18,985 bases of DNA from a virus (taxonomy: Duplodnaviria > Heunggongvirae > Uroviricota > Caudoviricetes). Positions 514 to 18,985 of the stretch are shown piece after piece. The notes beneath the pieces were generated by a model that saw only the letters and a program-made list of their open reading frames with translations, was not told where the DNA came from and ran no database searches. The position numbers were made by a program, and so were the translations under genes. Where the stretch lies: the IMG/VR virus record IMGVR_UViG_2734482774_000015. The stretch is one strand, 5' to 3'. The stretch's first letter is position 1. The number at the start of each line of letters is the position of its first letter.

Positions 514-524
514 ATTCACCCCAC

Positions 525-552
525 AAAAAAGCCCGCCTGAACCGGCGGGCTG
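525..552 (-). terminator. Rho-independent terminator immediately upstream of stf
   Basis: Minus strand reads AGCCCGCCGG-TTCA-GGCGGGCT followed by TTTTTTGTGG: a GC-rich stem-loop plus U-run. Confidence 0.6.
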
Positions 553-573
553 TCATAACACTGTGTTACCTGG

Positions 574-2211: not shown

Positions 2212-2348
2212 ACATCCTTGCTTTATGAATAAAACGCACCCCAGCAGCCAGTGCTACTGGGGGCGGAGGTGTTGCTGGTAAAGTTAGGTATTGGATCAAT
2301 GAGTGAGTCAACATAATATTAAACTCACAATTATAAATCAGCCATATA

Positions 2349-3806
2349 TTAGGAGCGCCAAAAAAAACCTGAAAACAAAATAATAACAGGATAAATTTCA
2401 AGGCGACCAAGAATCATAGCTATGCACATTAAATATTTTGCAATGTCATTAAGCACTCCGAATGACGATGCAGTAGCCCCAAAACCTAATCCCATATTAT
2501 TAATACATGCAGCCACTGTTGCAAATGATGTAAGAAAATCATATCCCATACCATTTAACACCAGTATAAAAAACACCGTGAAGAGAGTATAAAGAAAAAA
2601 GAAACTCCATACAGACCTCATTACACGATCTGTAACTATCTTCCCTCCTACATTTACACTCAACAACGCTCTGGGATGAGAAAGCTGATTTATCTCGTGT
2701 TTGCTTTGTTTGAAAAGTATAAGAAATCGAAGTGACTTAATTCCACCACAAGTTGAACCTATACATCCCCCAAAGAAACTTGACAACAGCAAAAACACTA
2801 TCGTGTGCGTGGGCCAGCTTGCATAATCCTGCATAGCTAAACCATTATCAGTGAGCATGGAGCTGGCAAGAAAAAACGAATGAATAAAACTTCCATGCAA
2901 GTCATACATACCTATATGCCAGACCTGGAAAGAGGTAACAATGATCACCCCTAAGGCTATTAACAGAAAGAAACGAAGTTCAATATCTCTGATTAAAGGT
3001 TTTATCGTTTTCCTGCTAATAACAATATACCAAAGAGTGAAGTTGAAAGCCGATAGCAGGGAAAAAGAACCAGCCACCAGCTCAACCAAATAGTTATTAA
3101 AATATCCGATACTCTCGCTATGAGTTGAGAAACCACCAAGCGAAACTGTGGAAATCCCGTGACAAATAGCATCAAACAAAGGCATTCCTGCAAGTCTATA
3201 ACAGACAATACAAGCAATACCTAATAAAGAATAAGTTATCCACAGTGTCCGTGACGTATCGGCCAGGCGGGGAGTGAGTTTGTCATCCTTAAATGGCCCC
3301 GGCATTTCTGACTGATAAAGCTTTGCACCACCAATACCCAATAATGGCAATACAGCAACCGCCAGAACAATAACTCCTAAACCACCTATAAAATTTAACT
3401 GTGACCGATAGTACAAATATGCCCGAGGTAATGAACTAACATCATCAATTACAGTTGCTCCTGTTGTTGTTATTCCAGAAACCCCTTCAAACAGAGCATC
3501 AATGAACGTTAAATTAAGTTCTGAGTCAATCCATAAAGGGAATGCACTAATAACAGAAAACAAAATCCAAAACATTACAATTATAATAAACCCATCACGG
3601 GTACGTAATTGAATGCCAGATTTCTTAGTTGTATACCACGCTCCGCCACCAATGCAAAAAAATATAACGAAAGTTATAAAGAAAACGAACAGGCTTTTTT
3701 CTTTATAAAACAATGCTACAACCATTGGTGGCAACATTGAAAGACTATAGAGCCAAACCAGGAACCCACACATATGAGTAACAACTCTTACATGAGATGT
3801 ATTCAT
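2349..3806 (-). CDS. trkG: TrkH/TrkG-family K+ uptake transporter (485 aa)
   Basis: Multi-pass hydrophobic protein with repeated pore-like GxGG segments, recognised as E. coli TrkG (Rac prophage cargo). The region is visibly AT-rich compared with flanking phage genes. The track ORF starts 18 nt upstream at a TTG; the ATG giving MNTSHVRV is preferred. Confidence 0.88.
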   Translation of the reverse strand: MNTSHVRVVTHMCGFLVWLYSLSMLPPMVVALFYKEKSLFVFFITFVIFFCIGGGAWYTTKKSGIQLRTRDGFIIIVMFWILFSVISAFPLWIDSELNLTFIDALFEGVSGITTTGATVIDDVSSLPRAYLYYRSQLNFIGGLGVIVLAVAVLPLLGIGGAKLYQSEMPGPFKDDKLTPRLADTSRTLWITYSLLGIACIVCYRLAGMPLFDAICHGISTVSLGGFSTHSESIGYFNNYLVELVAGSFSLLSAFNFTLWYIVISRKTIKPLIRDIELRFFLLIALGVIIVTSFQVWHIGMYDLHGSFIHSFFLASSMLTDNGLAMQDYASWPTHTIVFLLLSSFFGGCIGSTCGGIKSLRFLILFKQSKHEINQLSHPRALLSVNVGGKIVTDRVMRSVWSFFFLYTLFTVFFILVLNGMGYDFLTSFATVAACINNMGLGFGATASSFGVLNDIAKYLMCIAMILGRLEIYPVIILFSGFFWRS

Positions 3807-3943
3807 ATCTAAATATTCTTTCAATTATAACCACCTTGCTGCAATATTATGATTATACTGTATAAAATTTAACTCCTCTTAGATCTTACTTCACTGTTCC
3901 TTATGAAACAATCATCAAAATGAATCATATTGTAGTTAAGATT

Positions 3944-4408
3944 TTACTTTAAACACTGTTCGGTTATGTATTGCTGAGCACCTTCAAGTTGGGCCTGCAT
4001 CATTACCAGTCGTTCCCGGAGGGTGAAATAATCCCGTTCAGCGGTGTCTGCCAGTCGGGGGGAGGCTGCATTATCCACGCCGGAGGCGGTGGTGGCTTCA
4101 CGCACTGACTGACAGACTGCTTTGATGTGCAACCGACGACGACCAGCGGCAACATCATCACGCAGAGCATCATTTTCAGCTTTCGCATCAGCTAACTCCT
4201 TCGTGTATTTTGCATCGAGCGCAGCAACATCACGCTGACGCATCTGCATGTCAGTAATTGCCGCGTTCGCCAGCTTCAGTTCTCTGGCATTTTTGTCGCG
4301 CTGGGCTTTGTAGGTAATGGCGTTATCACGGTAATGATTAACAGCCCATGACAGGCAGACGATGATGCAGATAACCAGAGCGGAGATAATCGCGGTTACT
4401 CTGTTCAT
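3944..4408 (-). CDS. rzpD: Rz-type i-spanin (154 aa)
   Basis: N-terminal TM segment ([20 protein letters not shown]) followed by a coiled-coil-like charged region. Its start overlaps the endolysin stop (ATGA). Matches DLP12 RzpD as recalled. Confidence 0.85.
4003..4188 (-). CDS. rzoD: Rz1-type o-spanin lipoprotein, embedded in the +1 frame of Rz (61 aa)
   Basis: Lipobox LVVVGC followed by a proline-rich segment ([15 protein letters not shown]), entirely inside the Rz gene. Confidence 0.85.
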
Positions 4409-4902
4409 TGCTGACCCCACAAACAGATTTCACGCTCAATCTCACGACGAGTCATGAGACCTTTCCATTGCTTACCGCCAGCATATGTCCAGCGACGTAG
4501 CTGATCACATGCGCCTTTGATATCGCCCTGGTTTATTTTGCGAAGAAGCGTCGATGTTCTGAAATTGCCAGCACCCACGTTGTAAACGAATGAGTAAAGA
4601 GCGCCGCGCATTGTTTCCGGTATATCGACTTTGATGTACGGGTTAATTTGTCTGGCGACCGTGGCAAGGTCTTTATTCAGGAGGGCTTTGCATTCTGCTT
4701 TGGTATACGTTTTACCGGGAATGATGTCTTTTCCTGTATGCCCGTGACATACAGTCCATACACCAACAATATCTTTGTATGGTATGTAGCTGACACCTTC
4801 CAGACCATCGTTACCACTTGGGCCAGTAATTAACACTGATGCTATAGCAATTGCTCCGCCACCAATAGCAGCAGCAACGGCTTTTCGTAATGATGGAGGC
4901 AT
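4405..4902 (-). CDS. rrrD: SAR endolysin, T4-lysozyme family (165 aa)
   Basis: N-terminal Gly/Ala-rich weakly hydrophobic signal-anchor-release segment ([20 protein letters not shown]) followed by a lysozyme-like body. Matches DLP12 RrrD / phage 21 R as recalled. Confidence 0.9.
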
Positions 4903-5117
4903 TATTCACCTCTCGCAGCCTTGCGCTTATCTTCTTTAATCTTGAAATAAAGGTTTGTCAGGTACGTCAGCAGGCCAAATACCAGGCTACCCAGCACACC
5001 TATTGCTGCCCACTGTGAGGGCGTGACTTTATCGAGCAGCTGTAAAAACCAGTAACCGGCACTACCTGCTGAGGTGCCATAGGCGACACCCGTTGTTAAC
5101 TTATCCATGGATTTCAT
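4902..5117 (-). CDS. essD: Class II pinholin of the S21 family with dual-start motif (71/68 aa)
   Basis: Starts MKSMDK, i.e. two in-frame starts separated by a Lys codon. Two TM segments and a charged C-terminus ([13 protein letters not shown]). Stop overlaps the endolysin start. Confidence 0.85.
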
Positions 5118-5704
5118 AACCCCACCTCGCAGACAAAGCGGGTGTAAATTGAGGGAATACAACGTATCGCAAAAAAGCAGAAACGTAACAGACTCGGAGT
5201 CAGTGAATAACTCAGGTATTGGGTTATCAGCTAATATCGAGACTCAAAAAATGGAAAAACCTGCTCGACGGCGGGTTTAAGCTGTGTGACGAAGTAACCA
5301 CTCTTAACAGCATAACCAATTTTTTACGTACGTAAACCACTAAATGATATTTGCGAGAATGCTACCGAGTATTGAAAACACCACTACAAATACATAAGCA
5401 AATCTCAACAAATAACCAACAAATAATTTCCAGCGTTATTTTTAGCTGGTTTAAATTGAACCTTCAAATTATAGAGCACTTATAAATAACAGCCATTAAT
5501 ATAAATTGGCTAATAGATTTATTTTTATTCAGCCAAGAGCCATGAATAGGATTCGATAGAAAAAGTTCAGATAAAAATAGAGATCTACTTCACAAATCAA
5601 ATGAGAAACCAAAACTTACATCTTGAAATAATCACATTGATTAGATGAATATTTATCGCGCAGTGACATCATTTTTTAATAATAGTTCAAAAAAAGGGCT
5701 CACG

Positions 5705-6787
5705 ATGAAAAAATTAACAGTGGCAATTTCTGCTGTAGCTGCATCAGTACTGATGGCGATGTCTGCTCAGGCAGCTGAAATTTATAATAAAGACAGTAAC
5801 AAGCTGGATCTGTACGGGAAAGTTAATGCTAAGCACTACTTCTCCTCTAATGATGCAGATGATGGTGATACTACTTATGCCCGTCTTGGCTTCAAAGGTG
5901 AAACCCAAATCAACGATCAACTGACTGGTTTCGGTCAGTGGGAATATGAATTCAAAGGCAACCGCGCTGAATCTCAAGGTTCCTCCAAAGATAAAACCCG
6001 TCTTGCCTTCGCTGGCCTGAAATTCGGTGACTACGGCTCCATCGATTATGGCCGTAACTACGGTGTAGCATACGATATTGGTGCATGGACCGACGTTCTG
6101 CCAGAATTCGGTGGCGATACCTGGACCCAAACAGATGTATTCATGACTGGTCGCACCACAGGTGTTGCAACTTATCGTAACAATGACTTCTTTGGTCTGG
6201 TTGATGGTCTGAACTTTGCTGCTCAGTATCAGGGTAAAAATGACCGCACTGACGTAACTGAAGCTAATGGTGATGGTTTCGGTTTCTCCACTACTTATGA
6301 GTATGAAGGATTCGGTGTAGGTGCAACCTATGCTAAATCTGACCGCACTAATAATCAGGTTATCTACGGTAACAACAGCCTGAATGCATCTGGTCAAAAT
6401 GCTGAAGTATGGGCAGCTGGTCTGAAATATGATGCGAACAACATCTATCTGGCTACCACCTATTCTGAAACCCAGAACATGACTGTTTTTGGTAATAACC
6501 ATATTGCCAACAAAGCACAAAACTTCGAAGTAGTTGCACAATATCAGTTCGACTTCGGTCTGCGTCCGTCCGTTGCTTACCTGCAATCTAAAGGAAAAGA
6601 CTTGGGTGCGTGGGGTGATCAGGACCTGGTTGAATATATTGATGTAGGTGCAACCTATTACTTCAACAAAAATATGTCCACTTTTGTTGATTACAAAATC
6701 AACCTGATTGATAAGAGCGATTTCACGAAAGCATCTGGCGTTGCTACCGATGATATCGTTGCTGTAGGTATGGTTTACCAGTTCTAA
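5705..6787 (+). CDS. nmpC: Outer-membrane general porin, OmpC/OmpF/NmpC family (360 aa incl. signal peptide)
   Basis: Signal peptide [23 protein letters not shown], Tyr/Gly-rich beta-barrel repeats and C-terminal ...VYQF. It is convergent with Q and antisense to the late operon, as in DLP12. The track ORF starts 60 nt upstream; the ATG at 5705 is preferred. Confidence 0.85.
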
Positions 6788-6802
6788 TTTGATTACTAAA
6801 AG

Positions 6803-6838
6803 ATATGTTGCGGGAGGCTTTGCCTCCCCAACATATAA
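6803..6838 (-). terminator. Long imperfect hairpin, candidate tR'-like terminator of the short Q-dependent late leader
   Basis: ATATGTTGCGGGAGGC-TTT-GCCTCCCCAACATAT dyad, followed on the minus strand by CTTTTAG. A second small hairpin GTGGCT..AGCCAC lies adjacent (about 6841..6858). Confidence 0.35.
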
Positions 6839-6916
6839 GTGGCTCCCTCAAGCCACTTCCTTTAGGAGCACAACCTTGCTTCTAACTATATAAACCTTCT
6901 GTTATATATTACCCTT

Positions 6917-6948
6917 TATTTTTGGGGGCGTCTCAACGCCCCATTTTT
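6917..6948 (+). terminator. Rho-independent terminator downstream of nmpC
   Basis: GGGGGCG-TCTCAA-CGCCCC stem-loop followed by ATTTTTAATAATTTTT on the + strand. Confidence 0.55.
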
Positions 6949-6975
6949 AATAATTTTTAGTAAACAATTGGCATA

Positions 6976-7359
6976 TTAATTAGAGTTATTAACAACGATA
7001 TCCATCTCTAACCGGATATCTAATGCCATTAACATCCCTTCAATTATGCCCTCAGCCTTCTGTAACCTTTTCCCGATATAACCATCAGAGCAGCAATGCT
7101 TACCTGCCAGTGACATGAATGTCATACCGACTACATAATAATCTACTAATAAATCGTGCAAATCGCTGTTGTTCTTTTTCAGACGGGCCATGCACCCGCA
7201 AATAATCATCGCGTCATCGTCACAACATTGCGGGCGAGATTTTACTTTTGAAGTAATTAATCCCTTAAAACCGGCGGCAATGGACGACCAGGTCACATCT
7301 TCATGATTATTAGCCGCCCACGCTCCCCAACGCTCAAGAACCATCTGAATATCACGCAT
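6976..7359 (-). CDS. quuD: Late-gene antiterminator Q (127 aa)
   Basis: [22 protein letters not shown]... with Cys-rich putative zinc-binding region ([16 protein letters not shown]). Lies between the nin region and the lysis genes. The track ORF starts 5 codons upstream at a TTG. Confidence 0.85.
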
Positions 7360-7444
7360 CAACTTACTCCACAAAAATCAGACCAGAACGCCAATTACAA
7401 GCAAAAATCAACGAAACAGTATTAGTTGATTGTTATCTCTGACT

Positions 7445-7585
7445 TCATACTCCTGCTCCTGTCAGGGTTTTGGCGTAATTCTTCAGTATTCGGTAATCGG
7501 TCAAAACAGAACCGGGGAAACGATATAAGCGCAGACGCCCCCAGCGGTGGCGAAGACGTTCTGCCATATAAAACTCAAACATCAT
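7445..7585 (-). CDS. ylcG: Small nin-region protein YlcG (46 aa)
   Basis: Below the ORF-track size cutoff. Minus-strand translation: [46 protein letters not shown]. Start overlaps the rusA stop (ATGA). Confidence 0.8.
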
Positions 7586-7944
7586 TCATTCCCCATTTCG
7601 GTGATGGTCAGTTCCAGCCTCCCACCTTTGGTAACAGGCATCTTCACAACGCGGTAATCAACGACCTGAGCATCATCCAGCCAGAAACCTGCTTTAGTGA
7701 GTGCGTCAAAAGCGGCTTTTTGCAGATTATCCAGGTCACGGCGACGGCGATCCGGCATGTGGCACTCAATGCGGATTTTCACAGGCATAGCCAAGCCGAT
7801 ATCCAGCATTGCGTTTTTAATGATTCGGGCGACGTTATCGCGGTATGCCTGCCCCTCTGCGCTGACGTGCGTGCGCCCGCGATTATGGCGGTAATAGCGA
7901 TTATTGCTCGGAGGCCAGGGTAATGTGATGCTGTAGGTATTCAC
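7582..7944 (-). CDS. rusA: Holliday junction resolvase RusA (120 aa)
   Basis: Full-length match to E. coli RusA as recalled ([37 protein letters not shown]...). Confidence 0.95.
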
Positions 7945-8231
7945 GCCTTAATAACCCCCTCTTTCAGCCAGATAACCTGTGTTCTCGCCATACCTTCCAG
8001 CGCGCATTCTTTTGCATATGCAGCATCGACAAAATGTGTGCGGCGGTCGATTTCGTCGTGGCAGGCAGAACATGCAATGGTGGCAATCAGGTCTGGCGGT
8101 TTGGTACCGGTGCCGCACAATCCAGTCAGCCGGATATGTGCCAGTACAGACGTTTCAGGGTTACCATTACATACGCCAGGGATTCTTACCTGGCATTCCC
8201 GACTACGCGCTGCTTTTCTCAAATCAGCCAT
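7941..8231 (-). CDS. ybcO: Nin-region putative nuclease YbcO (96 aa)
   Basis: [37 protein letters not shown]... with multiple Cys. Start overlaps the ninE stop (ATGGCTGA). The track ORF is extended upstream. Confidence 0.85.
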
Positions 8232-8394
8232 GATTCCTCCTTGCTGCCAGTCGCAACCATTTTTTATCAACCAGGCTGGCGGTATATCCGAGCAGTGTTG
8301 GTATTTCGGAAGGTTTCAGCTCCGGTTTACGCTTACGACGATTTGGTACTCTGTAGATGTGTCCGTTCATGACACGAATAAGCGGTGTAGCCAT
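8224..8394 (-). CDS. ninE: NinE (56 aa)
   Basis: Below the track cutoff. Minus-strand translation: [56 protein letters not shown]. Start overlaps the ybcN stop. Confidence 0.85.
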   Translation of the reverse strand: MATPLIRVMNGHIYRVPNRRKRKPELKPSEIPTLLGYTASLVDKKWLRLAARRNHG

Positions 8395-8849
8395 TACGCC
8401 TCCTGCTTGTCACGGAGCTGCTGGAACTCGCAGCTCTGCGGAATAGTCAGATGGCAGCCAATATTCACCGCCCAGGCTTCAACCTTACACAGGAAGACAT
8501 ACATCTCTCCGGTATCAAGATCGGAGGTATGGCGTAACGACTGGATAGTGGTGATATCACCGGTTACGACATCAACCAGGTCTTTGGTTTCATAACCGAG
8601 ATATGTGTGTTTGAGAGCATCTTTTACCCAAGCTGGAGTGGCGAACGTTTTACCCCTGCTGATGAGGTATTCACTGATTTCGCTGTACCACATGTGGCTG
8701 AGTGCATTCTGGGAAAGACTGCGTTTCTCACGCCACGGTTTAAGCACCATGCGAAAGCATTTGCCCTCCTCCAGATAAGGCTGGATCTGCCGACCGATAG
8801 CGGTGAAGTTACCGCGATGTAATTTTATGCCGTCTTGTGGGAGGTTCAC
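8394..8849 (-). CDS. ybcN: NinB-position protein YbcN (151 aa), GTG start
   Basis: [57 protein letters not shown]..., recognised as DLP12 YbcN. Confidence 0.85.
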
Positions 8850-9096
8850 GCTTCACCTCCGCAGAGGCCAAACGCTGGATGCAAAAAATCGCAGGTGCAT
8901 TTCTGCATCTGTGAATGGAGAAGATAGGTTGGTTTGTATGTGCGCATAACCCCAAATCTTCATACGTTACGGTATCAAGGTAATAATCACTATTTACCTT
9001 TAGCCATTCAGTAATAAGCCTTCTCTGGCGGTTTAATGAATCACCAGACATCTGACCTGGTGATGAAAATCGCATATATGCTATGGCTTTTTTCAT
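8809..9096 (-). pseudogene. ybcK: Serine recombinase (YbcK-like) N-terminal remnant: about 49 homologous codons, then unrelated sequence
   Basis: [49 protein letters not shown] carries the resolvase catalytic Ser/Arg motif. The remaining ~46 codons are not recombinase-like and overlap the ybcN start. A full serine recombinase would be several hundred aa. Confidence 0.7.
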
Positions 9097-9351
9097 GGTG
9101 ACACCTGCTAAAGTATGCTTTTATAAACCTTAGTGGTGAGATATGATTTTTGTTTAATTTTTATTTAAAAAGACAATTAAGGTCACATTATCTTGAATAT
9201 ACAACAATAATCGTATTGCAATTTTCTTACACCATAATCCTGAAAGCACAAAAGAATGAATAAAAACTAAAGACATTAACAAAAAGCATAAAACGAGGCC
9301 CATATAAATATACGAACCTCCATATTTTAGTCGTTTAAAAACAAATTATTT

Positions 9352-9684
9352 TTAATGTGGTGTGCTTCGTGACAATAAATTAATAACCAACACACCGGCA
9401 CAAATCAACATCATGCCTATAATGGCTGGCAGGTCCAACCGTTGGCCGAAAAATCCCCATGATAGTAAGCTAATCAGGACAATACCGACTCCTGACCAGA
9501 TAGCATAAGCAATCCCTGTAGGAATATAAGCCAGCGTCTGAGCTAATAACCAGAATGATGCACAATAACAAATAATTGTACCAACAGATGGCCATAACCG
9601 TGTAAAACCTTCTGAAAACTTCATTAAGGTTGTACCAATGACCTCTGCAAGTATTGCACCACCAAGATAAATATAAGGATTCAT
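9352..9684 (-). CDS. emrE: Small multidrug resistance efflux transporter EmrE (110 aa)
   Basis: MNPYIYLGGAILAEVIGTTLMKFSEGFTRLWPSVGTI... with four TM helices and the conserved membrane-embedded Glu. The track ORF is extended 18 codons upstream. AT-rich flanks. Confidence 0.95.
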   Translation of the reverse strand: MNPYIYLGGAILAEVIGTTLMKFSEGFTRLWPSVGTIICYCASFWLLAQTLAYIPTGIAYAIWSGVGIVLISLLSWGFFGQRLDLPAIIGMMLICAGVLVINLLSRSTPH

Positions 9685-9751
9685 AGCATATTCTTTCCTG
9701 TTCAAACTGGAGAGAATTGTACTACAGTTTGAACTCAACTCACCTGTTTCA

Positions 9752-10054
9752 TCATTGTGTACCCATTGATGTTCTTTTATATACCCTCAATACCCGTTTC
9801 ATCGCGGCACTCTGGCGACACTCCTTAAAAATCAAATTCGTGCTCACCTTTCCTTCCCATTCTTCTCTGGTAGCGAACCGATAATACACCGTTCGCCAGA
9901 CCTTACCATCAACGACCAGGATTCCTGCCCGCGCCATTTTAGCCGCAGCCTGATTTATGCTGGTTACCGTTGCGCCTGTTACCGCGGCAACGTCCTGCGC
10001 ACAGAATTTCTTATGAGTCCCCAGGTAATGAATAATTGCCTCTTTGCCCGTCAT
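9752..10054 (-). CDS. ren: Ren exclusion protein (100 aa)
   Basis: MTGKEAIIHYLGTHKKFCAQDVAAVTGATVTSINQAAAKMARAGILVVDGKVWRTVYYRFATREE..., recognised as λ Ren. Immediately downstream of P. Confidence 0.9.
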   Translation of the reverse strand: MTGKEAIIHYLGTHKKFCAQDVAAVTGATVTSINQAAAKMARAGILVVDGKVWRTVYYRFATREEWEGKVSTNLIFKECRQSAAMKRVLRVYKRTSMGTQ

Positions 10055-10752
10055 ACCCTTGCTCCTTTCAGCCCAAACTTAGCTTTGATTTCTGCGATCT
10101 TCGCCAGAGCCTGTGCACGATTTAGAGGTCTACCGCCCATGACAGGAAGTTGTTTTACTGGTTCAGGTATAGCCTCACCACGGTTAATTCGCGCGGTCAT
10201 ACAGGCCAGTTCATCGGCAGCCTTGCGCCGTAATTCCGCGTCAGTCAACGCATTGGCCCGCATGTTCTGGTACAGGTTGGTAACCAACCAGTAGTGCGCG
10301 TTTGATTTCCATGGATAAGACTCTGCGTCCGGATACAGGCCACGCTTCCGGCAATACTCGTAAACCATATCAACCAGCTCGCTGGCGTTTGGCAGCCCGG
10401 CTGTAACGGATGTTTCTTCCCGGCACCAGGCAACAAACTGCCCGGGTGATGGCAGGAATGGTCGATTCTGCCGACGGGCTACGCGCATTCCTGCGTTAAC
10501 CTGTTCCATTGTGGTGATCCCGTTTTCCCGGAAAGCCAGCACCCACTGGCGGCGGATTTCGTTCAGTTCGTTCTGGTCCCGGTTAGCCAGGCTCGCCGGG
10601 AAAGTTGCCAGTAACTGGCTGAACACACCATTGATGATCTGCGCTACCAGCTGTACCTGCGGCTTTTCGTCGTACTGTTCCGGCATGTTATTGGCGATCC
10701 GACGCATCTGCTCACGGTCAAAGTTAACCATCTGTGCGGCGATGTTTTTCAT
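10051..10752 (-). CDS. P: Replication protein P, DnaB helicase loader (233 aa)
   Basis: MKNIAAQMVNFDREQMRRIANNMPEQYDEKPQV...AKIAEIKAKFGLKGARV, recognised as near-identical to λ P. Confidence 0.95.
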   Translation of the reverse strand: MKNIAAQMVNFDREQMRRIANNMPEQYDEKPQVQLVAQIINGVFSQLLATFPASLANRDQNELNEIRRQWVLAFRENGITTMEQVNAGMRVARRQNRPFLPSPGQFVAWCREETSVTAGLPNASELVDMVYEYCRKRGLYPDAESYPWKSNAHYWLVTNLYQNMRANALTDAELRRKAADELACMTARINRGEAIPEPVKQLPVMGGRPLNRAQALAKIAEIKAKFGLKGARV

Positions 10753-11678
10753 AAATCCACCCCATAAATCCAGTCAGTGTTTGTCAGGTCGAGTTTTGAT
10801 TTTCCGGCTGTCACGCCAGCCTGTTGCTTGTTACGGTTGATTTCGAGTTGGGTCCACTTGTCGCGGAGTTTGGCCGGACATAGCACGTTACCGGACCAGA
10901 AGTTGTCCTGGCATGCCCAGCGGAACAGCACGCACATGTCGCGGTGGTTACGTCCGTCACGTTCACGCATCAGGCGGATATCGTTAGCCCACCCTGCAAA
11001 ATTCGGTTTTCTGGCTGATGGCGCGATGGTCTTCACCATGTCAAACATCCACTCTGCGGCGGTCAGGTCTTCTGCTGTCCCCCACTTGCTGCCGCTCTGA
11101 ATTGCAGCATCCGGTTTCACCACAGGAAGATCGTTTTCTGGCTGGTCAGAGGATTCGTCAGAATTCTCGGACGAAAAAGGTTTTATATTGTCTTTTGTTA
11201 GTTTGTCTTTTGTGTTTACCTGATTCGGGTAAACGCCTTTACCTGATTTGGGTAAACTTTTCTTACCTGATTCAGGTAAATTTACCTCTTTCAGGTAAAC
11301 TTTATTTTTCTTACCTGATTCGGGTAATGTTGACCATTCACTGACCACATTATTAATGCCGGTATTCCGCCCGCTCTGAATAAGAATCCCACGCTTTACC
11401 AGAACACTTTTTGCAGCAGAACACTTGTGCGGCAATATCCCGGTCAATTCGGACAGTTGCTCGTTGCTCACCCAATCCAGTTTTTTATTAAAGCCATATG
11501 TTTTGCGCATGACAGCTAGGAAGACCAGAAGCTGGTGCTGTGTTAATCCGGCCAGCATCACAGCTTCCAGCAACTCATTTGCAATGCGCGTATAACCATC
11601 ATCGAGATCTGCCACGCGCGGCTCCTTTTGTGCCGCATCCGGCACTGGAAAATTGAATATCTCAGCAGTGTTTGCCAT
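10749..11678 (-). CDS. O: Replication initiator O-like protein (about 309 aa); origin iterons lie inside the gene
   Basis: N-terminal domain ADLDDGYTRIANELLEAVMLAGLTQHQLLVFLAVMRKTYGFNKKLD... resembles the λ O DNA-binding domain. The repeated LPESGKK peptides reflect the iterons. ATG at 11678 is preceded by GGGAGG. The track ORF starts 30 codons upstream at 11768, which remains an alternative start. Confidence 0.85.
   Translation of the reverse strand: MANTAEIFNFPVPDAAQKEPRVADLDDGYTRIANELLEAVMLAGLTQHQLLVFLAVMRKTYGFNKKLDWVSNEQLSELTGILPHKCSAAKSVLVKRGILIQSGRNTGINNVVSEWSTLPESGKKNKVYLKEVNLPESGKKSLPKSGKGVYPNQVNTKDKLTKDNIKPFSSENSDESSDQPENDLPVVKPDAAIQSGSKWGTAEDLTAAEWMFDMVKTIAPSARKPNFAGWANDIRLMRERDGRNHRDMCVLFRWACQDNFWSGNVLCPAKLRDKWTQLEINRNKQQAGVTAGKSKLDLTNTDWIYGVDL
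11215..11328. repeat. Replication origin: five about 19-bp iterons (consensus TTACCTGATTCGGGTAAAC, each an inverted repeat TTACC..GGTAA) next to an AT-rich tract (about 11175..11214)
   Basis: Direct repeats at about 11215-11234, 11238-11257, 11263-11280, 11281-11300 and 11311-11328, inside the O-like coding sequence, with the AT-rich stretch AAAAAGGTTTTATATTGTCTTTTGTTAGTTTGTCTTTTGTGTTT alongside, as in oriλ. Confidence 0.8.
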
Positions 11679-11764
11679 AATTCCTCCCGCAATGAGTGTG
11701 TTACGATTTGCACCTGAAAGTCGGTTCTGTTCCAGCAGACCGGCTTTCGCCATTTCTGAACCTG

Positions 11765-12304
11765 TCATATCGCCCCCAGCATGGTAGTAACCATCGCCAT
11801 CAATGGACCAGCCAGATCTGGGTCCACACGAAACATCGACACAATACCTTCACTAATTTCCTTCAGTTTCTGGTGGCGTGGTGCGTTGAGAATGACAGCC
11901 TGTTTTGCCTCACTGAGTTCCTTTTCCATTTCAGCCAACCTAGCCATGAAGCTATCCTGCTCAACCAGGTAACCGCGATATTCCAGCGGTAGTACCGCCA
12001 GAATTGCCGGGGTCAGTTCACGCACGTTATTTCGGTATTTTTCAGAATCGAATTTGTTATCGAGGAAGCGGAACAGCTTCTGGCGTGCACGGCTGACATC
12101 ATCAGGGAAATCGATGGTGCCGCCGCCCTGCTCCCGATACTCATTCACAATGAGTGTGGCAACGACATCCTGATTATCTTCAGCCGACCAAGCGCGGACG
12201 GCATCACGGATTTTTTCGTGGCCTGGCACCTGTTTTGTTTGAGAACGATTTATCACCGCAGTCGGGCTAAATCCGCTAGTCTGTTGGTATGTAAGTGGTT
12301 GCAT
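11765..12304 (-). CDS. YdaT-like protein in the cII position (179 aa)
   Basis: ATG preceded by AAAGGAG. Located directly downstream of the cro-like gene. Weak recalled resemblance to the Rac YdaT family (IRDAVRAW..., ARQKLFRFLDNK...). Function not established here. Confidence 0.5.
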   Translation of the reverse strand: MQPLTYQQTSGFSPTAVINRSQTKQVPGHEKIRDAVRAWSAEDNQDVVATLIVNEYREQGGGTIDFPDDVSRARQKLFRFLDNKFDSEKYRNNVRELTPAILAVLPLEYRGYLVEQDSFMARLAEMEKELSEAKQAVILNAPRHQKLKEISEGIVSMFRVDPDLAGPLMAMVTTMLGAI

Positions 12305-12373
12305 AATTGACTCCTTTAGTTTGAATTGACTGTTAAGTTGATTGCTTATTGTTAAAGAGCGTGAAATGGAAAT

Positions 12374-12604
12374 TTAAGCTGCGTTCTTTTCGGTGTGTGG
12401 AAACAACTTCGGAAGATCCGGGCGAATCTGGTATGCCTTCACTACTCCACCAGTAGCCGTAACAATGCTGCCGACATGTTCAGGGGATACCTTTGCTTTG
12501 TTGTGAAGCCACTTATAGACGGCCTGCTGTGAAACTTCGCAAGCAGCGCCCAGTTTCTTTTGTGAACCAACGATATTGATCGCTGTTTTGATAGCTGGGT
12601 TCAT
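12374..12604 (-). CDS. cro: Cro-like HTH regulator, YdaS-like (76 aa)
   Basis: Divergent from cI across a 104-bp operator region. Putative HTH (QKKLGAACEVSQQAVYKWLHN). GGAGG lies 5 nt upstream of the ATG. Confidence 0.75.
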   Translation of the reverse strand: MNPAIKTAINIVGSQKKLGAACEVSQQAVYKWLHNKAKVSPEHVGSIVTATGGVVKAYQIRPDLPKLFPHTEKNAA

Positions 12605-12708
12605 AACAACCTCCGTGGTTAATTTGAATCAAGATTAAAACTATGGTTGTTTTTAGTCAACAACCATTTTCGTTTGATGGAATAAAACCTTGGTTGTACA
12701 TTTGGACT
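12605..12708. promoter_or_regulatory. oR-like divergent control region: pR for cro (minus strand, -35 TTGACT, -10 TAATCT) and a likely leaderless pRM-type start for cI
   Basis: Minus strand reads TTGTTGACTAAAAACAACCATAGTTTTAATCT, then GGAGG and the cro ATG. Dyad elements ATGGTTGT...ACAACCAT and TTAATTTGAATCAAGATTAA are present. The cI ATG at 12709 has no recognisable Shine-Dalgarno, as for λ cI. Confidence 0.65.
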
Positions 12709-13398
12709 ATGAAAACAACACTCTCAGAAAGACTTAAAGAAGCCAGATTAGCGCGAGGCCTTACACAAAAGGCGCTTGGGGATTTGGTCGGGGTTAGCCA
12801 AGCTGCTATTCAGAAAATCGAAACAGGGAAAGCTAATCAAACAACTAAAATCGTGGAGATCGCGAACGCTTTGGGTGTGCGCGCAGAATGGTTATCTTCT
12901 GGCGTTGGAAATATGTCAGACAGTACAGTGCAACCAATACAATCAACTGTCAGCCATTCCAAATACTTCAAGATTGACGTTCTTGATATAGAAGTCAGTG
13001 CTGGGCCGGGAGTCATCAACCGTGAGTTTGTAGAAGTTCTACGCTCGGTTGAGTACTCGTTTGACGATGCTCGTCACATGTTCGATGGTAGGAAGGCGGA
13101 AAATATCCGCATCATTAACGTGCGTGGTGACAGCATGTCAGGAACGATCGAACCAGGTGATCTGCTGTTCGTTGATATCACAGTTAAATCTTTCGACGGT
13201 GATGGTATCTATGCGTTTCTGTACGACGACACAGCCCATGTAAAGCGCCTGCAAATGATGAAGGATAAGCTGCTGGTCATCTCTGATAACAAAAGCTACT
13301 CACCGTGGGACCCGATCGAGAAAGACGAGATGAACCGGGTGTTCATCTTCGGTAAGGTTATTGGGAGCATGCCGCAGACATATAGGAAGCATGGTTAA
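12709..13398 (+). CDS. cI: CI-type prophage repressor with LexA-like S24 autopeptidase domain (229 aa)
   Basis: N-terminal HTH (LTQKALGDLVGVSQAAIQKIETGK), candidate Ala-Gly cleavage site (EVSAGPG), catalytic Ser in RGDSMSGTIEPGDLLFVD and Lys in HVKRL. The upstream ATG at 12643 would place coding sequence over the operators and is rejected. Confidence 0.9.
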   Translation: MKTTLSERLKEARLARGLTQKALGDLVGVSQAAIQKIETGKANQTTKIVEIANALGVRAEWLSSGVGNMSDSTVQPIQSTVSHSKYFKIDVLDIEVSAGPGVINREFVEVLRSVEYSFDDARHMFDGRKAENIRIINVRGDSMSGTIEPGDLLFVDITVKSFDGDGIYAFLYDDTAHVKRLQMMKDKLLVISDNKSYSPWDPIEKDEMNRVFIFGKVIGSMPQTYRKHG

Positions 13399-13520
13399 AG
13401 TGAGGCTAAAAAACAGTTACAGCAATAGGCCTGTTGTTTTTCTTTAAACACGCAGTGTTAAACCGCTCTTTGAGATGCGGAGTAATGAGATGGAAGACTT
13501 GAATCACATAAGGGTTAGTG

Positions 13521-14270
13521 ATGGAGTGCGTAGCGAGCAGCAATAGTGCAATACCTAATGTCGTTGAAGTAATACGTCGCATCAATGAAGGTTCCACTCA
13601 GCCATTTCTTTGCAAATGTGATGATGGGCAGTTGTATGTTTTGAAGTCAAAACCATCAATGCCCCCGAAAAATCTCTTAGCTGAGTTCATTTCGGCGTGT
13701 TTGGCTAATGATATCGGCCTTCCTTTACCTGACTTTAAAATCGTATTTGTGCCAGAGGAACTTATAGAGTACTCACCTGATCTGCAGCAACAAATTTGTA
13801 CAGGATATGCCTTTGCTTCATTGTTCATTGACGGTGCAATAGCGTTAACGTTTACGCAGTCAAGAAACGAAACGATCATCCCAGTCGAACAGCAAAAATT
13901 AATCTATGTTTTTGATAAATGGATATTAAATGCAGACAGAACGCTTACTGACAAAGGTGGAAACGTTAACATCATTTATGACATCAGTAACGATAAGTAT
14001 TATCTGATTGACCATAATCTCTCATTTGATCAGAATGCTGGACCTGAAGATTTTTCTGTGCACGTGTACGGCCCTGGTAACCGCAAATGGCAATATGATT
14101 TAGTGGATCGCGTAGAGTACCGCCAGAGGGTCGTTAACAGTTTACACAAGCTTCCTGCTATCCTTGACGAAATTCCAGAAGAGTGGATAGTAGATGAGGA
14201 GTTTTTACCTTTTGTCTGCACTACGCTAGACAAAGGTGATTGTGATGAATTTTGGAGCGCAATAGAATGA
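13521..14270 (+). CDS. Uncharacterised protein with HipA-like / kinase-like catalytic motifs (249 aa); first gene of the cassette occupying the rexA slot
   Basis: Intact ORF 120 bp downstream of cI on the same strand. Motifs FDKWILNADRTLTDKGGN and IIYDIS resemble the HipA_C catalytic and Mg-binding Asp loops. AAGGG lies 7 nt upstream of the ATG; an alternative GTG start lies at 13518. The family assignment is inference from motifs only. Confidence 0.65.
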   Translation: MECVASSNSAIPNVVEVIRRINEGSTQPFLCKCDDGQLYVLKSKPSMPPKNLLAEFISACLANDIGLPLPDFKIVFVPEELIEYSPDLQQQICTGYAFASLFIDGAIALTFTQSRNETIIPVEQQKLIYVFDKWILNADRTLTDKGGNVNIIYDISNDKYYLIDHNLSFDQNAGPEDFSVHVYGPGNRKWQYDLVDRVEYRQRVVNSLHKLPAILDEIPEEWIVDEEFLPFVCTTLDKGDCDEFWSAIE

Positions 14271-15094
14271 CAACTCCATGCCTATATAGCATCGTTCGCT
14301 ATGCGCCTTATGCGGAGACTGAAGAGTTCGCAAACATAGGCGTACTTCTGTGCGCGCCAAAAGAAAATTACTTTGATTTCCAGCTCACAAAGCGAAATGA
14401 CTCTCGTGTAAAGAATTTTTTCCATGATGATTGTATTTTCCCTGTAGCAAAAGACTCAATACAAAGAGAACTACAGTTCGCAAAAATGCATGCGACCCAG
14501 ATTGTTGGACATCAACAACTTGCACAATTCTTCAGATATTTTACAAACAAAAAAGAATCAATTTTTCAGTTCAGTTCTACGAGAGTGATTCTCAGCGAAA
14601 ACCCAAAAGAAGAGCTGGCCCGCATTTACAATAAATATGTAAACCACTCTGACTACACAAAAGAGCGCCGTGAAGATGTTCTAGCCAGAGAGCTAAAACG
14701 AAGTATCGATAGAATAGATGGATTGAAGAACGTCTTCAAACAAGCAACCATTGATGGGTATTTCGCAAAGTTCTCAATGCCATTGGTCGCCAAGAAGCAT
14801 GACAGGATCCAATGTGCCATCAAACCTCTGGCATTCACTCAAGCTGAACCAGGAAAAATGATGGAGCATAGTGATACTTGGGTGATGAGAATAACTCGAG
14901 CAGCAGAAGAAAACCTGCTTTCACTTGATGACATTTTATTCACAATTGAAACTCCTGAATCACCAAACTCAGGCCAAAGCAAAGTTATTGACATCATAAA
15001 GAGAACTATGGATGCTAAGAAAATAAATCATATACCTGCATCCAACCACAAAGAAACTATTGATTTTGCAAAAAAAATACTTCCCCAAGTTTAA
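14267..15094 (+). CDS. Uncharacterised protein with DUF3037-like N-terminus (275 aa); second gene of the cassette, translationally coupled to the first
   Basis: The ATG overlaps the upstream stop (ATGA); GGAG lies 9 nt upstream. The N-terminus CLYSIVRYAPYAETEEFANIGVLLCAP matches my recollection of the DUF3037 signature. Followed by a strong terminator. Confidence 0.65.
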   Translation: MTTPCLYSIVRYAPYAETEEFANIGVLLCAPKENYFDFQLTKRNDSRVKNFFHDDCIFPVAKDSIQRELQFAKMHATQIVGHQQLAQFFRYFTNKKESIFQFSSTRVILSENPKEELARIYNKYVNHSDYTKERREDVLARELKRSIDRIDGLKNVFKQATIDGYFAKFSMPLVAKKHDRIQCAIKPLAFTQAEPGKMMEHSDTWVMRITRAAEENLLSLDDILFTIETPESPNSGQSKVIDIIKRTMDAKKINHIPASNHKETIDFAKKILPQV

Positions 15095-15128
15095 AATTTA
15101 TTTTTGTATGTGATATTCCTTATTAATA

Positions 15129-15156
15129 ACCCGGCCACCGTGCCGGGTTTTCTTTT
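15129..15156 (+). terminator. Rho-independent terminator ending the cI-downstream cassette
   Basis: ACCCGGC-CACCGT-GCCGGGT stem-loop followed by TTTTCTTTT on the + strand. Confidence 0.75.
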
Positions 15157-15288
15157 GCCTCCCCTCATCACACAAACCGCTCAAAAAACCACCATAACCT
15201 CGCTTCAGTTATCGCTATGCGATTCAAGTCACAAAATAAATCCATCCTAAATACAACCAGTTATATCTAAAACAACCAATAAAACAAC

Positions 15289-15326
15289 TTTTGTTGTTGA
15301 CGGTAAAACAACTATAGTTTTAAATA
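15289..15326 (+). promoter_or_regulatory. oL/pL-like promoter-operator, a near copy of the pR core
   Basis: TTGTTGACGGTAAAACAACTATAGTTTTAAATA here versus TTGTTGACTAAAAACAACCATAGTTTTAATCT at pR. Upstream operator-like repeats ACAACCAG, ACAACCAAT and the palindrome CAACTTTTGTTG lie at about 15252..15296. Confidence 0.6.
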
Positions 15327-15723
15327 GGTTCATCGCAACAACACAACGATACGGCAACCACCTGATTCACCGTTGCGATGACCGCTTAGATCCGCAGTTT
15401 GAATTTCAGCAGGCTTCGGGGAGTGCGAGGGGTGAAACGGACGCGTGAACGTCGGTGTGACCAGCTGAAATCAACTCAACATTTCATACCTTAGTCGCTT
15501 CAACGAGGCGGCTTAGTTATGACAACCGGCGGCCATCCACCGCCTGAATACGCGCAGAAGTCTCTATATGTTCAGCAGCCCAGCTTCACAGCGATGCCAG
15601 AGTCTGTAGTGTCAGATGATGACCGTACTCAAACATCGGGTTGAGTATTATCTTACTGTTTCTTTACATAAACATTGCTGATACCGTTTAGCTGAAACGA
15701 CATACATTGCAAGGAGTTTATAA

Positions 15724-16005
15724 ATGAGTATCAATGAGTTAGAGTCTGAGCAAAAAGATTGGGCGTTATCAATGTTGTGCAGATCCGGTGTCTTGTCTCC
15801 ATGCAGACATCACGAAGGTGTTTATGTAGATGAAGGTATAGATATAGAGTCGGCATACAAATATTCCATGAAGGTTTATAAGTCTAATGAAGACAAATCC
15901 CCATTCTGCAATGTGCGAGAAATGACTGATACCGTGCAAAATTATTATCACGAGTACGGTGGAAACGATACTTGCCCTCTCTGTACAAAACATATAGATG
16001 ATTAA
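15724..16005 (+). CDS. ea8.5: Ea8.5-like protein (93 aa)
   Basis: Size and position (upstream of orf-55/xis) as in λ. Cys/His pattern (CRHHEG ... CPLCTKH) is consistent with a metal-binding fold. Preceded by AAGGAG. Confidence 0.8.
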   Translation: MSINELESEQKDWALSMLCRSGVLSPCRHHEGVYVDEGIDIESAYKYSMKVYKSNEDKSPFCNVREMTDTVQNYYHEYGGNDTCPLCTKHIDD

Positions 16006-16093
16006 ACCCAATATTACATAACAATCCTCGCACTCGCGGGGATTTATTTTATCTGAACTCGCTACGGCGGGTTTTGTTTTATGGAGATGATAA

Positions 16094-16261
16094 ATGCACT
16101 TCCGAGTCACAGGAGAATGGAATGGAGAGCCATTCAACAGAGTTATCGAAGCGGAGAACATCAACGACTGCTACGACCACTGGATGATATGGGCGCAGAT
16201 AGCACATGCAGACATAACCAATATTCGAATTGAAGAACTGAAAGAACACCAAGCCGCCTGA
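16094..16261 (+). CDS. Small λ-like hypothetical protein (orf-55, 55 aa)
   Basis: Below the track cutoff. Translation: MHFRVTGEWNGEPFNRVIEAENINDCYDHWMIWAQIAHADITNIRIEELKEHQAA*. Same position as λ orf-55. Confidence 0.65.
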   Translation: MHFRVTGEWNGEPFNRVIEAENINDCYDHWMIWAQIAHADITNIRIEELKEHQAA

Positions 16262-16278
16262 TGGCGGTTTTTTCTTGC
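16253..16278 (+). terminator. Terminator-like hairpin between orf-55 and xis
   Basis: GCCGCC-TGAT-GGCGG followed by TTTTTTCTTG. Confidence 0.45.
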
Positions 16279-16300
16279 GTGTAATTGCGGAGACTTTGCG

Positions 16301-16519
16301 ATGTACTTGACACTTCAGGAGTGGAACGCTCGCCAGCGACGCCCAAGAAGCCTTGAAACAGTTCGTCGATGGGTGCGCGAATGCAGGATATTCCCTCCTC
16401 CGGTTAAGGATGGAAGAGAATATCTGTTCCACGAATCAGCGGTAAAGGTTGACTTAAATCGACCAGTAACAGGTAGCCTTTTGAAGAGGATCAGAAATGG
16501 GAAGAAGGCGAAGTCATGA
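16301..16519 (+). CDS. xis: Excisionase Xis (72 aa)
   Basis: MYLTLQEWNARQRRPRSLETVRRWVRECRIFPPPVKDGREYLFHESAVKVDLNRPVTGSLLKRIRNGKKAKS, recognised as λ Xis. The 3' end overlaps int by 23 nt, as in λ. Confidence 0.95.
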   Translation: MYLTLQEWNARQRRPRSLETVRRWVRECRIFPPPVKDGREYLFHESAVKVDLNRPVTGSLLKRIRNGKKAKS

Positions 16520-17567
16520 GCGCCGGGATTTACCCCCTAACCTTTATATAAGAAACAATGGATATTACTGCTACAGGGACCCAAGGACGGGTAAAGAGTT
16601 TGGATTAGGCAGAGACAGGCGAATCGCAATCACTGAAGCCATACAGGCCAACATTGAGTTATTTTCAGGACACAAACACAAGCCTCTGACAGCGAGAATC
16701 AACAGTGATAATTCCGTTACGTTACATTCATGGCTTGATCGCTACGAAAAAATCCTGGCCAGCAGAGGAATCAAGCAGAAGACACTCATAAATTACATGA
16801 GCAAAATTAAAGCAATAAGGAGGGGGCTGCCTGATGCTCCACTTGAAGACATCACCACAAAAGAAATTGCGGCAATGCTCAATGGATACATAGACGAGGG
16901 CAAGGCGGCGTCAGCCAACTTAATCAGATCAACACTGAGCGATGCATTCCGAGAGGCAATAGCTGAAGGCCATATAACAACAAACCCTGTCGCTGCCACT
17001 CGCGCAGCAAAATCAGAGGTAAGGAGATCAAGACTTACGGCTGACGAATACCTGAAAATTTATCAAGCAGCAGAATCATCACCATGTTGGCTCAGACTTG
17101 CAATGGAACTGGCTGTTGTTACCGGGCAACGAGTTGGTGATTTATGCGAAATGAAGTGGTCTGATATCGTAGATGGATATCTTTATGTCGAGCAAAGCAA
17201 AACAGGCGTAAAAATTGCCATCCCAACAACATTGCATGTTGATGCTCTCGGGATATCAATGAAGGAAACACTTGATAAATGCAAAGAGATTCTTGGCGGA
17301 GAAACCATAATTGCATCTACTCGTCGTGAACCGCTTTCATCCGGCACAGTATCAAGGTATTTTATGCGCGCACGAAAAGCATCAGGTCTTTCCTTCGAAG
17401 GGGATCCGCCTACCTTTCACGAGTTGCGCAGTTTGTCTGCAAGACTCTATGAGAAGCAGATAAGCGATAAGTTTGCTCAACATCTTCTCGGGCATAAGTC
17501 GGACACCATGGCATCACAGTATCGTGATGACAGAGGCAGGGAGTGGGACAAAATTGAAATCAAATAA
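16497..17567 (+). CDS. int: Tyrosine integrase Int (356 aa)
   Basis: Full-length, recognised as λ Int with only a few substitutions (MGRRRSHERRDLPPNLYIRNNGYYCYRDPRTGKEF...HELRSLSARLYEKQ...HLLGHKSDTMASQYRDDRGREWDKIEIK). Confidence 0.97.
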   Translation: MGRRRSHERRDLPPNLYIRNNGYYCYRDPRTGKEFGLGRDRRIAITEAIQANIELFSGHKHKPLTARINSDNSVTLHSWLDRYEKILASRGIKQKTLINYMSKIKAIRRGLPDAPLEDITTKEIAAMLNGYIDEGKAASANLIRSTLSDAFREAIAEGHITTNPVAATRAAKSEVRRSRLTADEYLKIYQAAESSPCWLRLAMELAVVTGQRVGDLCEMKWSDIVDGYLYVEQSKTGVKIAIPTTLHVDALGISMKETLDKCKEILGGETIIASTRREPLSSGTVSRYFMRARKASGLSFEGDPPTFHELRSLSARLYEKQISDKFAQHLLGHKSDTMASQYRDDRGREWDKIEIK

Positions 17568-17655
17568 TGATTTTATTTTGACTGATAGTGACCTGTTCGT
17601 TGCAACAAATTGATAAGCAATGCTTTTTTATAATGCCAACTTAGTATAAAAAAGC
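17568..17655. other. attL: attL: λ P' arm with arm-type Int sites, plus the 15-bp common core at 17641..17655
   Basis: TTAGTATAAAAAAGC is the reverse complement of the λ core GCTTTTTTATACTAA. The phage-side arm TAATGCCAACTTAGTATAAAAAAGC...TGATAGTGACCTG matches the λ P' arm. The sequence after the core (AGGCTTCA...) is host. Confidence 0.85.
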
Positions 17656-17701
17656 AGGCTTCAACGGATTCATTTTTCTATTTCATAGCCCGGAGCAACC
17701 T

Positions 17702-18985
17702 GTGAATACATTTTCAGTTTCCCGTCTGGCGCTGGCATTGGCTTTTGGCGTGACGCTGACCGCCTGTAGCTCAACCCCGCCCGATCAACGTCCTTCTGAT
17801 CAAACCGCGCCTGGTACCTCTTCTCGCCCGATTCTGTCGGCAAAAGAAGCGCAGAATTTCGATGCTCAACACTATTTTGCATCCCTGACACCAGGTGCTG
17901 CAGCGTGGAATCCTTCCCCGATTACCCTGCCTGCGCAACCTGACTTTGTTGTCGGCCCGGCGGGCACTCAAGGTGTAACGCATACCACGATTCAGGCGGC
18001 GGTAGATGCGGCAATTATCAAGCGTACCAACAAGCGCCAGTATATTGCCGTGATGCCTGGTGAGTATCAGGGAACGGTATATGTCCCTGCCGCTCCGGGT
18101 GGAATTACTCTGTACGGTACAGGTGAAAAACCGATTGATGTGAAGATTGGGCTTTCCCTTGATGGTGGCATGAGCCCTGCCGACTGGCGTCACGACGTCA
18201 ACCCGCGCGGCAAATATATGCCAGGTAAACCAGCGTGGTATATGTACGATAGCTGCCAGAGCAAACGCAGCGACAGTATCGGTGTTCTCTGCTCTGCGGT
18301 CTTCTGGTCACAAAACAATGGCCTGCAACTGCAAAATCTGACCATCGAAAACACGCTGGGCGATAGCGTAGATGCAGGTAACCATCCGGCGGTGGCACTG
18401 CGTACTGATGGTGACCAGGTACAGATTAACAACGTTAACATTCTCGGTCGTCAGAACACCTTCTTTGTCACCAACAGCGGTGTGCAGAACCGTCTGGAAA
18501 CGAATCGTCAGCCGCGTACGCTGGTGACCAACAGCTACATTGAAGGGGATGTGGATATCGTTTCTGGTCGCGGCGCAGTGGTGTTCGATAACACCGAATT
18601 CCGCGTGGTGAACTCACGTACTCAGCAAGAAGCGTATGTGTTTGCACCGGCTACGCTGTCCAACATTTACTACGGTTTCCTCGCCGTAAACAGCCGTTTC
18701 AATGCTTTCGGTGATGGTGTGGCGCAACTGGGCCGCTCGCTGGATGTTGATGCCAATACCAACGGTCAGGTGGTGATCCGTGATAGCGCCATCAACGAAG
18801 GTTTTAACACGGCTAAACCGTGGGCCGATGCGGTGATCTCTAATCGTCCGTTTGCGGGTAATACCGGCAGCGTAGATGATAACGACGAAATACAGCGCAA
18901 TCTGAATGACACTAACTACAACCGCATGTGGGAATACAATAACCGCGGCGTGGGCAGCAAAGTGGTTGCAGAGGCGAAGAAGTAA
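17702..18985 (+). CDS. ybhC: Host outer-membrane lipoprotein YbhC, pectinesterase-like acyl-CoA thioesterase family (427 aa), GTG start
   Basis: Lipoprotein signal with lipobox LTAC and pectinesterase-like repeats. Recognised as E. coli YbhC, the gene flanking attλ on the gal side. Confidence 0.9.
   Translation: MNTFSVSRLALALAFGVTLTACSSTPPDQRPSDQTAPGTSSRPILSAKEAQNFDAQHYFASLTPGAAAWNPSPITLPAQPDFVVGPAGTQGVTHTTIQAAVDAAIIKRTNKRQYIAVMPGEYQGTVYVPAAPGGITLYGTGEKPIDVKIGLSLDGGMSPADWRHDVNPRGKYMPGKPAWYMYDSCQSKRSDSIGVLCSAVFWSQNNGLQLQNLTIENTLGDSVDAGNHPAVALRTDGDQVQINNVNILGRQNTFFVTNSGVQNRLETNRQPRTLVTNSYIEGDVDIVSGRGAVVFDNTEFRVVNSRTQQEAYVFAPATLSNIYYGFLAVNSRFNAFGDGVAQLGRSLDVDANTNGQVVIRDSAINEGFNTAKPWADAVISNRPFAGNTGSVDDNDEIQRNLNDTNYNRMWEYNNRGVGSKVVAEAKK

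Follow-up and report, generated by a model that had tools for sequence, protein, structure and literature searches.

The lambda att/Int/Xis excision reaction is a well-characterized site-specific recombination system. Prophages lying between ybhC and ybhB have been listed for E. coli B (lambda-B) and Crooks (PMC3032704). In O104:H4, EAEC and ETEC strains, the dgcX gene is found beside lambdoid prophage DNA at attB, and the adjacent prophage varies between strains, comprising remnants of various sizes, one of them 29.9 kb (PMC4287979; PMC10459773). Loss of structural genes does not necessarily immobilize such elements: the defective lambdoid Sp prophages of O157 Sakai excise and circularize both with and without mitomycin C (PMC2669165), and Rac of K-12 is reported to do likewise (PMC4632033).

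The window, meaning the whole 18,985-nucleotide stretch of DNA that was analyzed, consists of 17.7 kb from the right-hand end of a lambdoid prophage and, adjoining it, ybhC (17702-18985, plus strand, as annotated in matching genomes), which flanks attB on its B side in the chromosome. Phage homology ends at an att core, and the far side is E. coli DNA, namely the ybhC flank of attB. These features identify the site as attL, the left junction of a defective lambda/HK97-type prophage at the classical E. coli lambda site, ybhC/ybhB. With a probability of roughly 0.55, the site is best read as the attL of a defective lambdoid prophage of about 21.5 kb that is situated between ybhC and ybhB, belongs to the dgcX family, carries an HK97/lambda-type recombination module and would excise by attL x attR exchange once its repressor is inactivated.

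The 15-bp common core, GCTTTTTTATACTAA, is identical to the core of lambda attP and attB and has a single exact match in the window (17641-17655, minus strand), where about 0.05 matches would be expected by chance with two mismatches tolerated. On the phage side of the core, three arm-type Int sites and the H' IHF site are present at lambda spacing, all on the minus strand and each with the exact lambda sequence: P'3, which overlaps the int stop codon (17564-17574), P'2 (17575-17584), P'1 (17585-17595) and H' (TATCAATTTGTTG, 17603-17615). The core-type Int sites C' (17637-17645) and B (17649-17657) and the 7-bp overlap region TTTATAC (17644-17650) occur as exact motifs on the same strand. The names and motif definitions of these sites (P'1-P'3, H', C', B and the overlap) follow the established literature on lambda att. 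Between the core and the int stop codon, P' arm included, there is no mismatch to lambda attP in 110-116 bp, and over 110 bp the match to HK97 and HK106 is likewise perfect. The original prediction of an intact attL with a well-preserved 15-bp core and P' arm is borne out by this complete B-O-P' junction. It had been assigned to 17568-17701, the intergenic DNA that separates the int stop codon (17567) from the first base of ybhC (17702); this interval does contain the junction, but its bounds are off, as attL begins 4 bp earlier and ends at about 17660, and 17660-17701 is ybhC upstream DNA only.

A chance resemblance or an assembly artefact can be given almost no weight, given the perfect identity to lambda attP over 110-116 bp beside int and xis genes that are 99% identical to those of lambda, and the recurrence of the same junction in many independent assemblies. 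One of the related assemblies (L017, GCA_021504255.1) has, within 8060-8210, an attL core with five A residues rather than six at the place corresponding to window positions 17648-17653, and is otherwise identical. This 1-bp core deletion either stems from a sequencing error in the homopolymer or is genuine, in which case it would prevent recombination with attR; it counts against the excision reading.

The enzymes encoded next to the site are equally close to known phages. The int gene (16497-17567, plus strand) encodes a lambda-type tyrosine integrase of 356 aa that is identical to lambda Int at 352/356 positions, and xis (16301-16519, plus strand), which overlaps the start of int, encodes a 72-aa excisionase identical to lambda Xis at 71/72 positions (G59S); both had been expected to be full-length and near-lambda, and they are. 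All six catalytic residues of Int (R212, K235, H308, R311, H333 and Y342) are present, and in an alignment of 105 sequences K235, R311, H333 and Y342 never vary, whilst at least 90% of the sequences keep R212 and H308. Pfam assigns to Int the domains Arm-DNA-bind_1 (residues 1-69), Phage_int_SAM_1/Phage_int_M and Phage_integrase (residues 179-345), and to Xis a full-length Exc domain (E = 3.9e-41). The int-xis module is nearer to HK97/HK106 than to lambda. For example, Xis is identical to the Xis of HK97 and HK106, and Int is one residue away from the integrases of the isolated phages HK106, Huey, 2B8 and JEP4 and two residues away from that of HK97. Three of the four differences between this Int and lambda Int are shared with HK97 or HK106, leaving K141N as the only one private to the lineage. 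The exact Int protein is found in many draft assemblies (183 index blocks), and the N141 allele is found in 2 of the 5426 complete E. coli genomes.

This private substitution bears on another reading, possible but clearly less probable than the preferred one, according to which the module looks intact because it is young or slow to drift and the element never excises, being a fixed island that carries dgcX, a porin, trkG and emrE. The cause would be either that Int K141N is impaired or that xis and int go unexpressed, there being no N and terminators lying before xis. Among the 105 full-length homologues, position 141 is K in 87, N in 13, R in 4 and S in 1. It is Lys or Arg in all aligned homologues that are at least 48% identical, and Asn is restricted to those at most 47% identical, a pattern that favors an impaired enzyme; on the other hand, Asn is the second commonest residue in the wider family (13/105), and the change is therefore not obviously inactivating. 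A literature search for Int Lys141 found no report. In addition, the unchanged state of all cis sites and a Xis that equals that of HK97 count against an element that has lost the ability to recombine.

Excision also requires attR, which the original prediction placed beyond stf. It is outside the window and was read in contigs identical to the window or one base off it (L004/L013 and L007), rather than in the source genome. These near-identical draft contigs were found by exact-protein look-ups. A 668-kb contig, DBBRHE010000001.1 (GCA_044945405.1), matches the whole window with one mismatch; its stretch L013 is 100% identical over 6497-18985, and its stretch L004 has one mismatch over 1-11427. 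Two further contigs are 100% identical to the window over 1-11427 (L009) and 1-9633 (L007). By comparison, the closest complete RefSeq E. coli genome covers 84% of the window at 98.8% identity. The prophage of E. coli B at this site was also considered as a counterpart and was dropped, since the collection contains no complete genome that matches the window in full.

In the near-identical contigs L004/L013 and L007, attR lies beyond stf, as predicted; it is 3.83 kb from the window start, past tfa and dgcX as well. An absent or mutated attR core had been named as the outcome that would speak against excision; the core there is present and exact, forms a direct repeat of the attL core and is followed by ybhB. 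From the coordinates of the near-identical contig, the core-to-core distance is calculated as 21,484 bp, giving an element of about 21.5 kb. Four relatives share one and the same attR P arm, which is 98.5% identical to the HK97 P arm and differs from lambda at 28/200 positions. Within it, the P1, H1, P2 and X1 motifs are unchanged, and the core of the H2 IHF site is kept. As judged from the window and, for attR, from near-identical assemblies, all sequence prerequisites for excision by Int, Xis, IHF and Fis are present.

Traces of the expected recombination products were sought in sequence collections. The P-O-P' junction of an excised circle had no match in viral contigs. With the P-arm variant of this lineage, such a junction was found in two metagenome contigs, each of which departs from attR at one position; the two positions are different, so every attR P-arm base is present in at least one of the contigs. 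The possibility that these contigs represent the excised 21.5-kb remnant was considered and rejected, since both are fuller phages. They consequently validate the att sequences and do not demonstrate excision of this particular element. The first contig (L021, SKEH01000629.1, 1-13983) has the order int'-attP-dgcX-tfa-stf-lom-J-I-K-L-M with an intact tail module, and is a much fuller relative, representing either the free form of a phage or a junction inside a tandem lysogen. In the second contig (L020), the junction lies at 2283-2332.

A junction of this kind is also compatible with an element that depends on a helper. Under such a scheme, the prophage would be silent on its own, and its attL and attR would be recombined by Int and Xis supplied by a superinfecting or co-resident phage of the lambda/HK97/434 type; the hybrid sites would in turn serve such phages as landing pads, generating tandem lysogens. 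Many isolated phages of the same Int specificity have att sites that match those of the element exactly or almost exactly, and the P-O-P' junction beside dgcX could itself have arisen inside a tandem lysogen. Nothing, however, points to the element's own int and xis being dead, and the window shows no second lambda-att phage. Dependence on a helper appears improbable as the whole account, and it would supplement autonomous excision of the dgcX-family prophage rather than exclude it.

The other product of the reaction, attB, was predicted by joining the B arm and core of the window to the B' arm of the relatives. This sequence is contiguous in 3487 of the 5426 complete E. coli genomes, three of which match it at 100% identity. 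It corresponds to the natural empty site in those 3487 genomes, so precise excision would be expected to restore a normal empty site. In the remaining genomes (about 36%), the lambda site is occupied or otherwise rearranged.

The element itself is defective, as judged from its gene content, and its earlier description as cryptic is upheld: the packaging, head and most tail genes are gone, and three deletion scars are visible. At the window start, the 5' part of the side tail fiber gene stf (1-519, minus strand) runs off toward tfa, dgcX and attR. Its continuation was read in L007, and the near-identical contigs contain stf (572 aa), tfa and a 443-aa MASE4-GGDEF gene, dgcX. In L004 and L007, dgcX is located directly inside attR beside ybhB, and its GGEEF motif is at residues 357-361. 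A scar at 567-576 marks the removal of lom, J and most of I, as judged against L021, in comparison with which stf is also shortened. It is followed by a chimeric ORF (651-1448, minus strand) that joins in-frame the N-terminus of TAGT, a TET-associated glycosyltransferase, to the NlpC/P60 C-terminus of lambda tail protein K (Pfam TAGT at 15-175 and NLPC_P60 at 178-242). This fusion shows that the packaging, head and proximal tail genes were all lost. In the assembly collection, 59 index blocks list the exact 258-aa version of this product; the 265-aa version is not on record. The 258-aa TAGT::K product offers a handy marker of the deletion lineage.

Beyond the chimeric ORF, the order is a ParB-like gene, trkG, Rz, endolysin, holin, porin, Q and nin-region genes, followed by a ybcK remnant, emrE, ren, P-like and O-like replication genes, and YdaT-like and YdaS-like genes. 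The HTH/S24 repressor, the HipA_2 kinase, a DUF3037 gene, the pL interval, a truncated kil, ea8.5, orf55, xis and int complete the map. The reading frames of Q and of the holin, endolysin and spanin genes (the latter three at 3944-5162) look intact. Several genes constitute host-like cargo, namely the TrkG potassium transporter (2349-3824), an OmpC/NmpC-like porin (5645-6787) and the EmrE efflux pump (9352-9738), and the ybcK gene (8809-9096) is a truncated serine-recombinase remnant. The early region (9779-15586) is 98.9% identical to the viable phage PhiR5_1, and the stretch from 15584 to 17655 is 99.2% identical to lambda, the ea8.5-orf55-xis-int block corresponding to lambda 29795-27724. 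Between them, a scar at 15584-15586 marks the loss of about 3.6 kb reaching from kil to ea22, which the relative L016 still has. The kil remnant (15519-15644, plus strand) spans this junction, and its start is as in PhiR5_1.

Many independent deletions have occurred in place at this site in the lineage, as would be expected of a long-resident, rarely excising element. That many sibling variants have decayed where they stand, with int, xis and attL kept, is what a permanently fixed island would also produce. In four variants (L002, L005, L014 and L018), a single deletion removed 11241-15584, including the repressor, the cro-like gene, the HipA_2/DUF3037 pair and pL, and retained xis, int and attL. 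The loss of the pL region together with the repressor agrees with a silent element, and it fits the notion that repressor loss alone would not be tolerated.

Persistence of perfect attL, attR, int and xis amid repeated structural-gene deletions would also be explained if selection had maintained a unit without virions. In such a unit, loss of repression would trigger excision, replication and lysis, making the element an SOS-triggered suicide or defense island, or a switch that controls the copy number or loss of its cargo. The former version leans on the HipA-like kinase/DUF3037 pair in the rex position, and the latter would have dgcX, the porin, trkG and emrE as its cargo. We consider maintenance of this kind very unlikely.

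The CI-like repressor (12643-13398, plus strand) has Pfam HTH_3 and Peptidase_S24 domains and a PHROG assignment as a transcriptional repressor. It contains Ala-Gly at residues 120-121 and the GDSM and VKRL motifs, which together with the S24 domain make RecA-stimulated self-cleavage plausible. The LexA-like character of this repressor suggests that the prophage may be under SOS control. Between the repressor and the pL region lie the genes for the HipA_2 kinase (250 aa) and the DUF3037 protein (280 aa) (13518-15094, plus strand), and a terminator at 15128-15149 ends the repressor-HipA_2-DUF3037 unit. This gene pair occupies the position of lambda rexA/rexB; it matches the PADLOC candidate defense pair PDC-M66A/B and is annotated as HipA/HipD in PhiR5_1.

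The presumed pL/oL interval (15150-15518, plus strand) contains AACAAC/GTTGTT operator-like repeats resembling those found between the repressor and the cro-like gene. Such motifs flank the repressor unit on both sides (12604-12710 and 15240-15330) and include the palindromes ATGGTTGTT-N7-AACAACCAT (12643-12667) and AACAAC-TTTT-GTTGTT (15284-15299); they are probably the operators of this immunity type. A candidate pL promoter on the plus strand would comprise TTGACG (15297-15302), a 17-nt spacer and TTAAAT (15320-15325), in which T replaces A at position 2 of the -10 element. A sigma-70 scan returned no pL candidate. The distance from the candidate promoter to xis is only about 1 kb. The segment 15100-15586 is 100% identical to the viable phage PhiR5_1, in which the interval likewise lies between the DUF3037 gene and kil.

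The route from this promoter to xis bears on the case for a silent, fixed element. No ORF of at least 50 aa that could represent N was found on the plus strand between 15094 and 15724, and none is annotated as N in the corresponding interval of PhiR5_1 or PhiR70_1. Transcripts heading for xis would also meet three terminator-like hairpins, one with a T-run just upstream of the gene (16251-16270, plus strand) and two others at 16023-16044 and 16055-16074. A put-like RNA antiterminator in the pL leader was considered as a substitute for N and rejected: the leader folds no better than shuffled sequences (z = -0.21), and a search of the window against Rfam gave no match. The hairpin immediately before xis is kept with compensatory stem changes, reading GCCGCC-TGAT-GGCGG in lambda and the window and GCCGCA-TCAA-TGCGGC in HK97 and PhiR70_1, which suggests a selected RNA or terminator element. 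In the viable phage PhiR70_1, a pL-kil layout that likewise lacks N is joined to a lambda-type xis-int segment and to this same hairpin, an arrangement that argues against silence of the module; as the hairpin is present in both PhiR70_1 and HK97, it is compatible with a working phage.

If the element excises as proposed, the process would begin with inactivation of the repressor, either through RecA-stimulated self-cleavage or through stochastic derepression. Rightward transcription from the pL region near 15.3 kb would then reach xis and int by way of the kil remnant, ea8.5 and orf55. Int would bridge the arm-type and core-type sites, Xis would bind the attR P arm with the assistance of Fis, and host IHF would bend the DNA at H' and H2. 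Exchange between attL and attR across the 7-bp overlap would generate a circle of about 21.5 kb bearing attP and would leave a restored attB in the chromosome. Such a circle would contain O-like and P-like replication genes and would lack packaging and virion genes, and hence it would yield no particles. Since Q and the lysis ORFs look intact and full SOS induction should turn them on too, it would probably lyse the cell more often than it would produce a cured survivor. Cured cells would come mainly from rare spontaneous events or from partial derepression. The original proposal that SOS induction could excise the element and cure the site is thus only plausible.

These results fix the right boundary of a 21.5-kb defective prophage, which matters little beyond annotation. 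With the lambda att site occupied, lambda-based integration tools would be expected to target the hybrid sites. Moreover, the dgcX, porin, trkG and emrE cargo could be lost or amplified through site-specific excision.

Several described systems provide direct comparisons. The Sp prophages and Rac (PMC2669165; PMC4632033) resemble the present element in combining multiple defects with retained int, xis and att sites; their excision is experimental, whereas that of the present element is deduced from sequence. Among dgcX prophages, the GGEEF position seen in the near-identical contigs fits the published E359/E360 mutants, and the variant described here is smaller than the 29.9-kb remnant. HK97 and HK106, which are temperate isolates of lambda att specificity, share their Xis and P' arm with the element; K141N is absent from both, and they are complete phages in contrast to a 21.5-kb remnant. 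The attL of a lambda lysogen has the same core, P' arm (P'1-P'3 and H'), B arm and ybhC/ybhB site, and its Int and Xis are 99% identical. Unlike that of lambda, the immunity region of the element is of the Rac/PhiR5_1 type, in which YdaS-like and YdaT-like genes replace cro and cII; the element also lacks N, the red genes, and the packaging, head and most tail genes. Published work already covers lambda att sites that are occupied, prophages that carry dgcX and defective prophages that excise, and nothing in the present locus lies outside this precedent.
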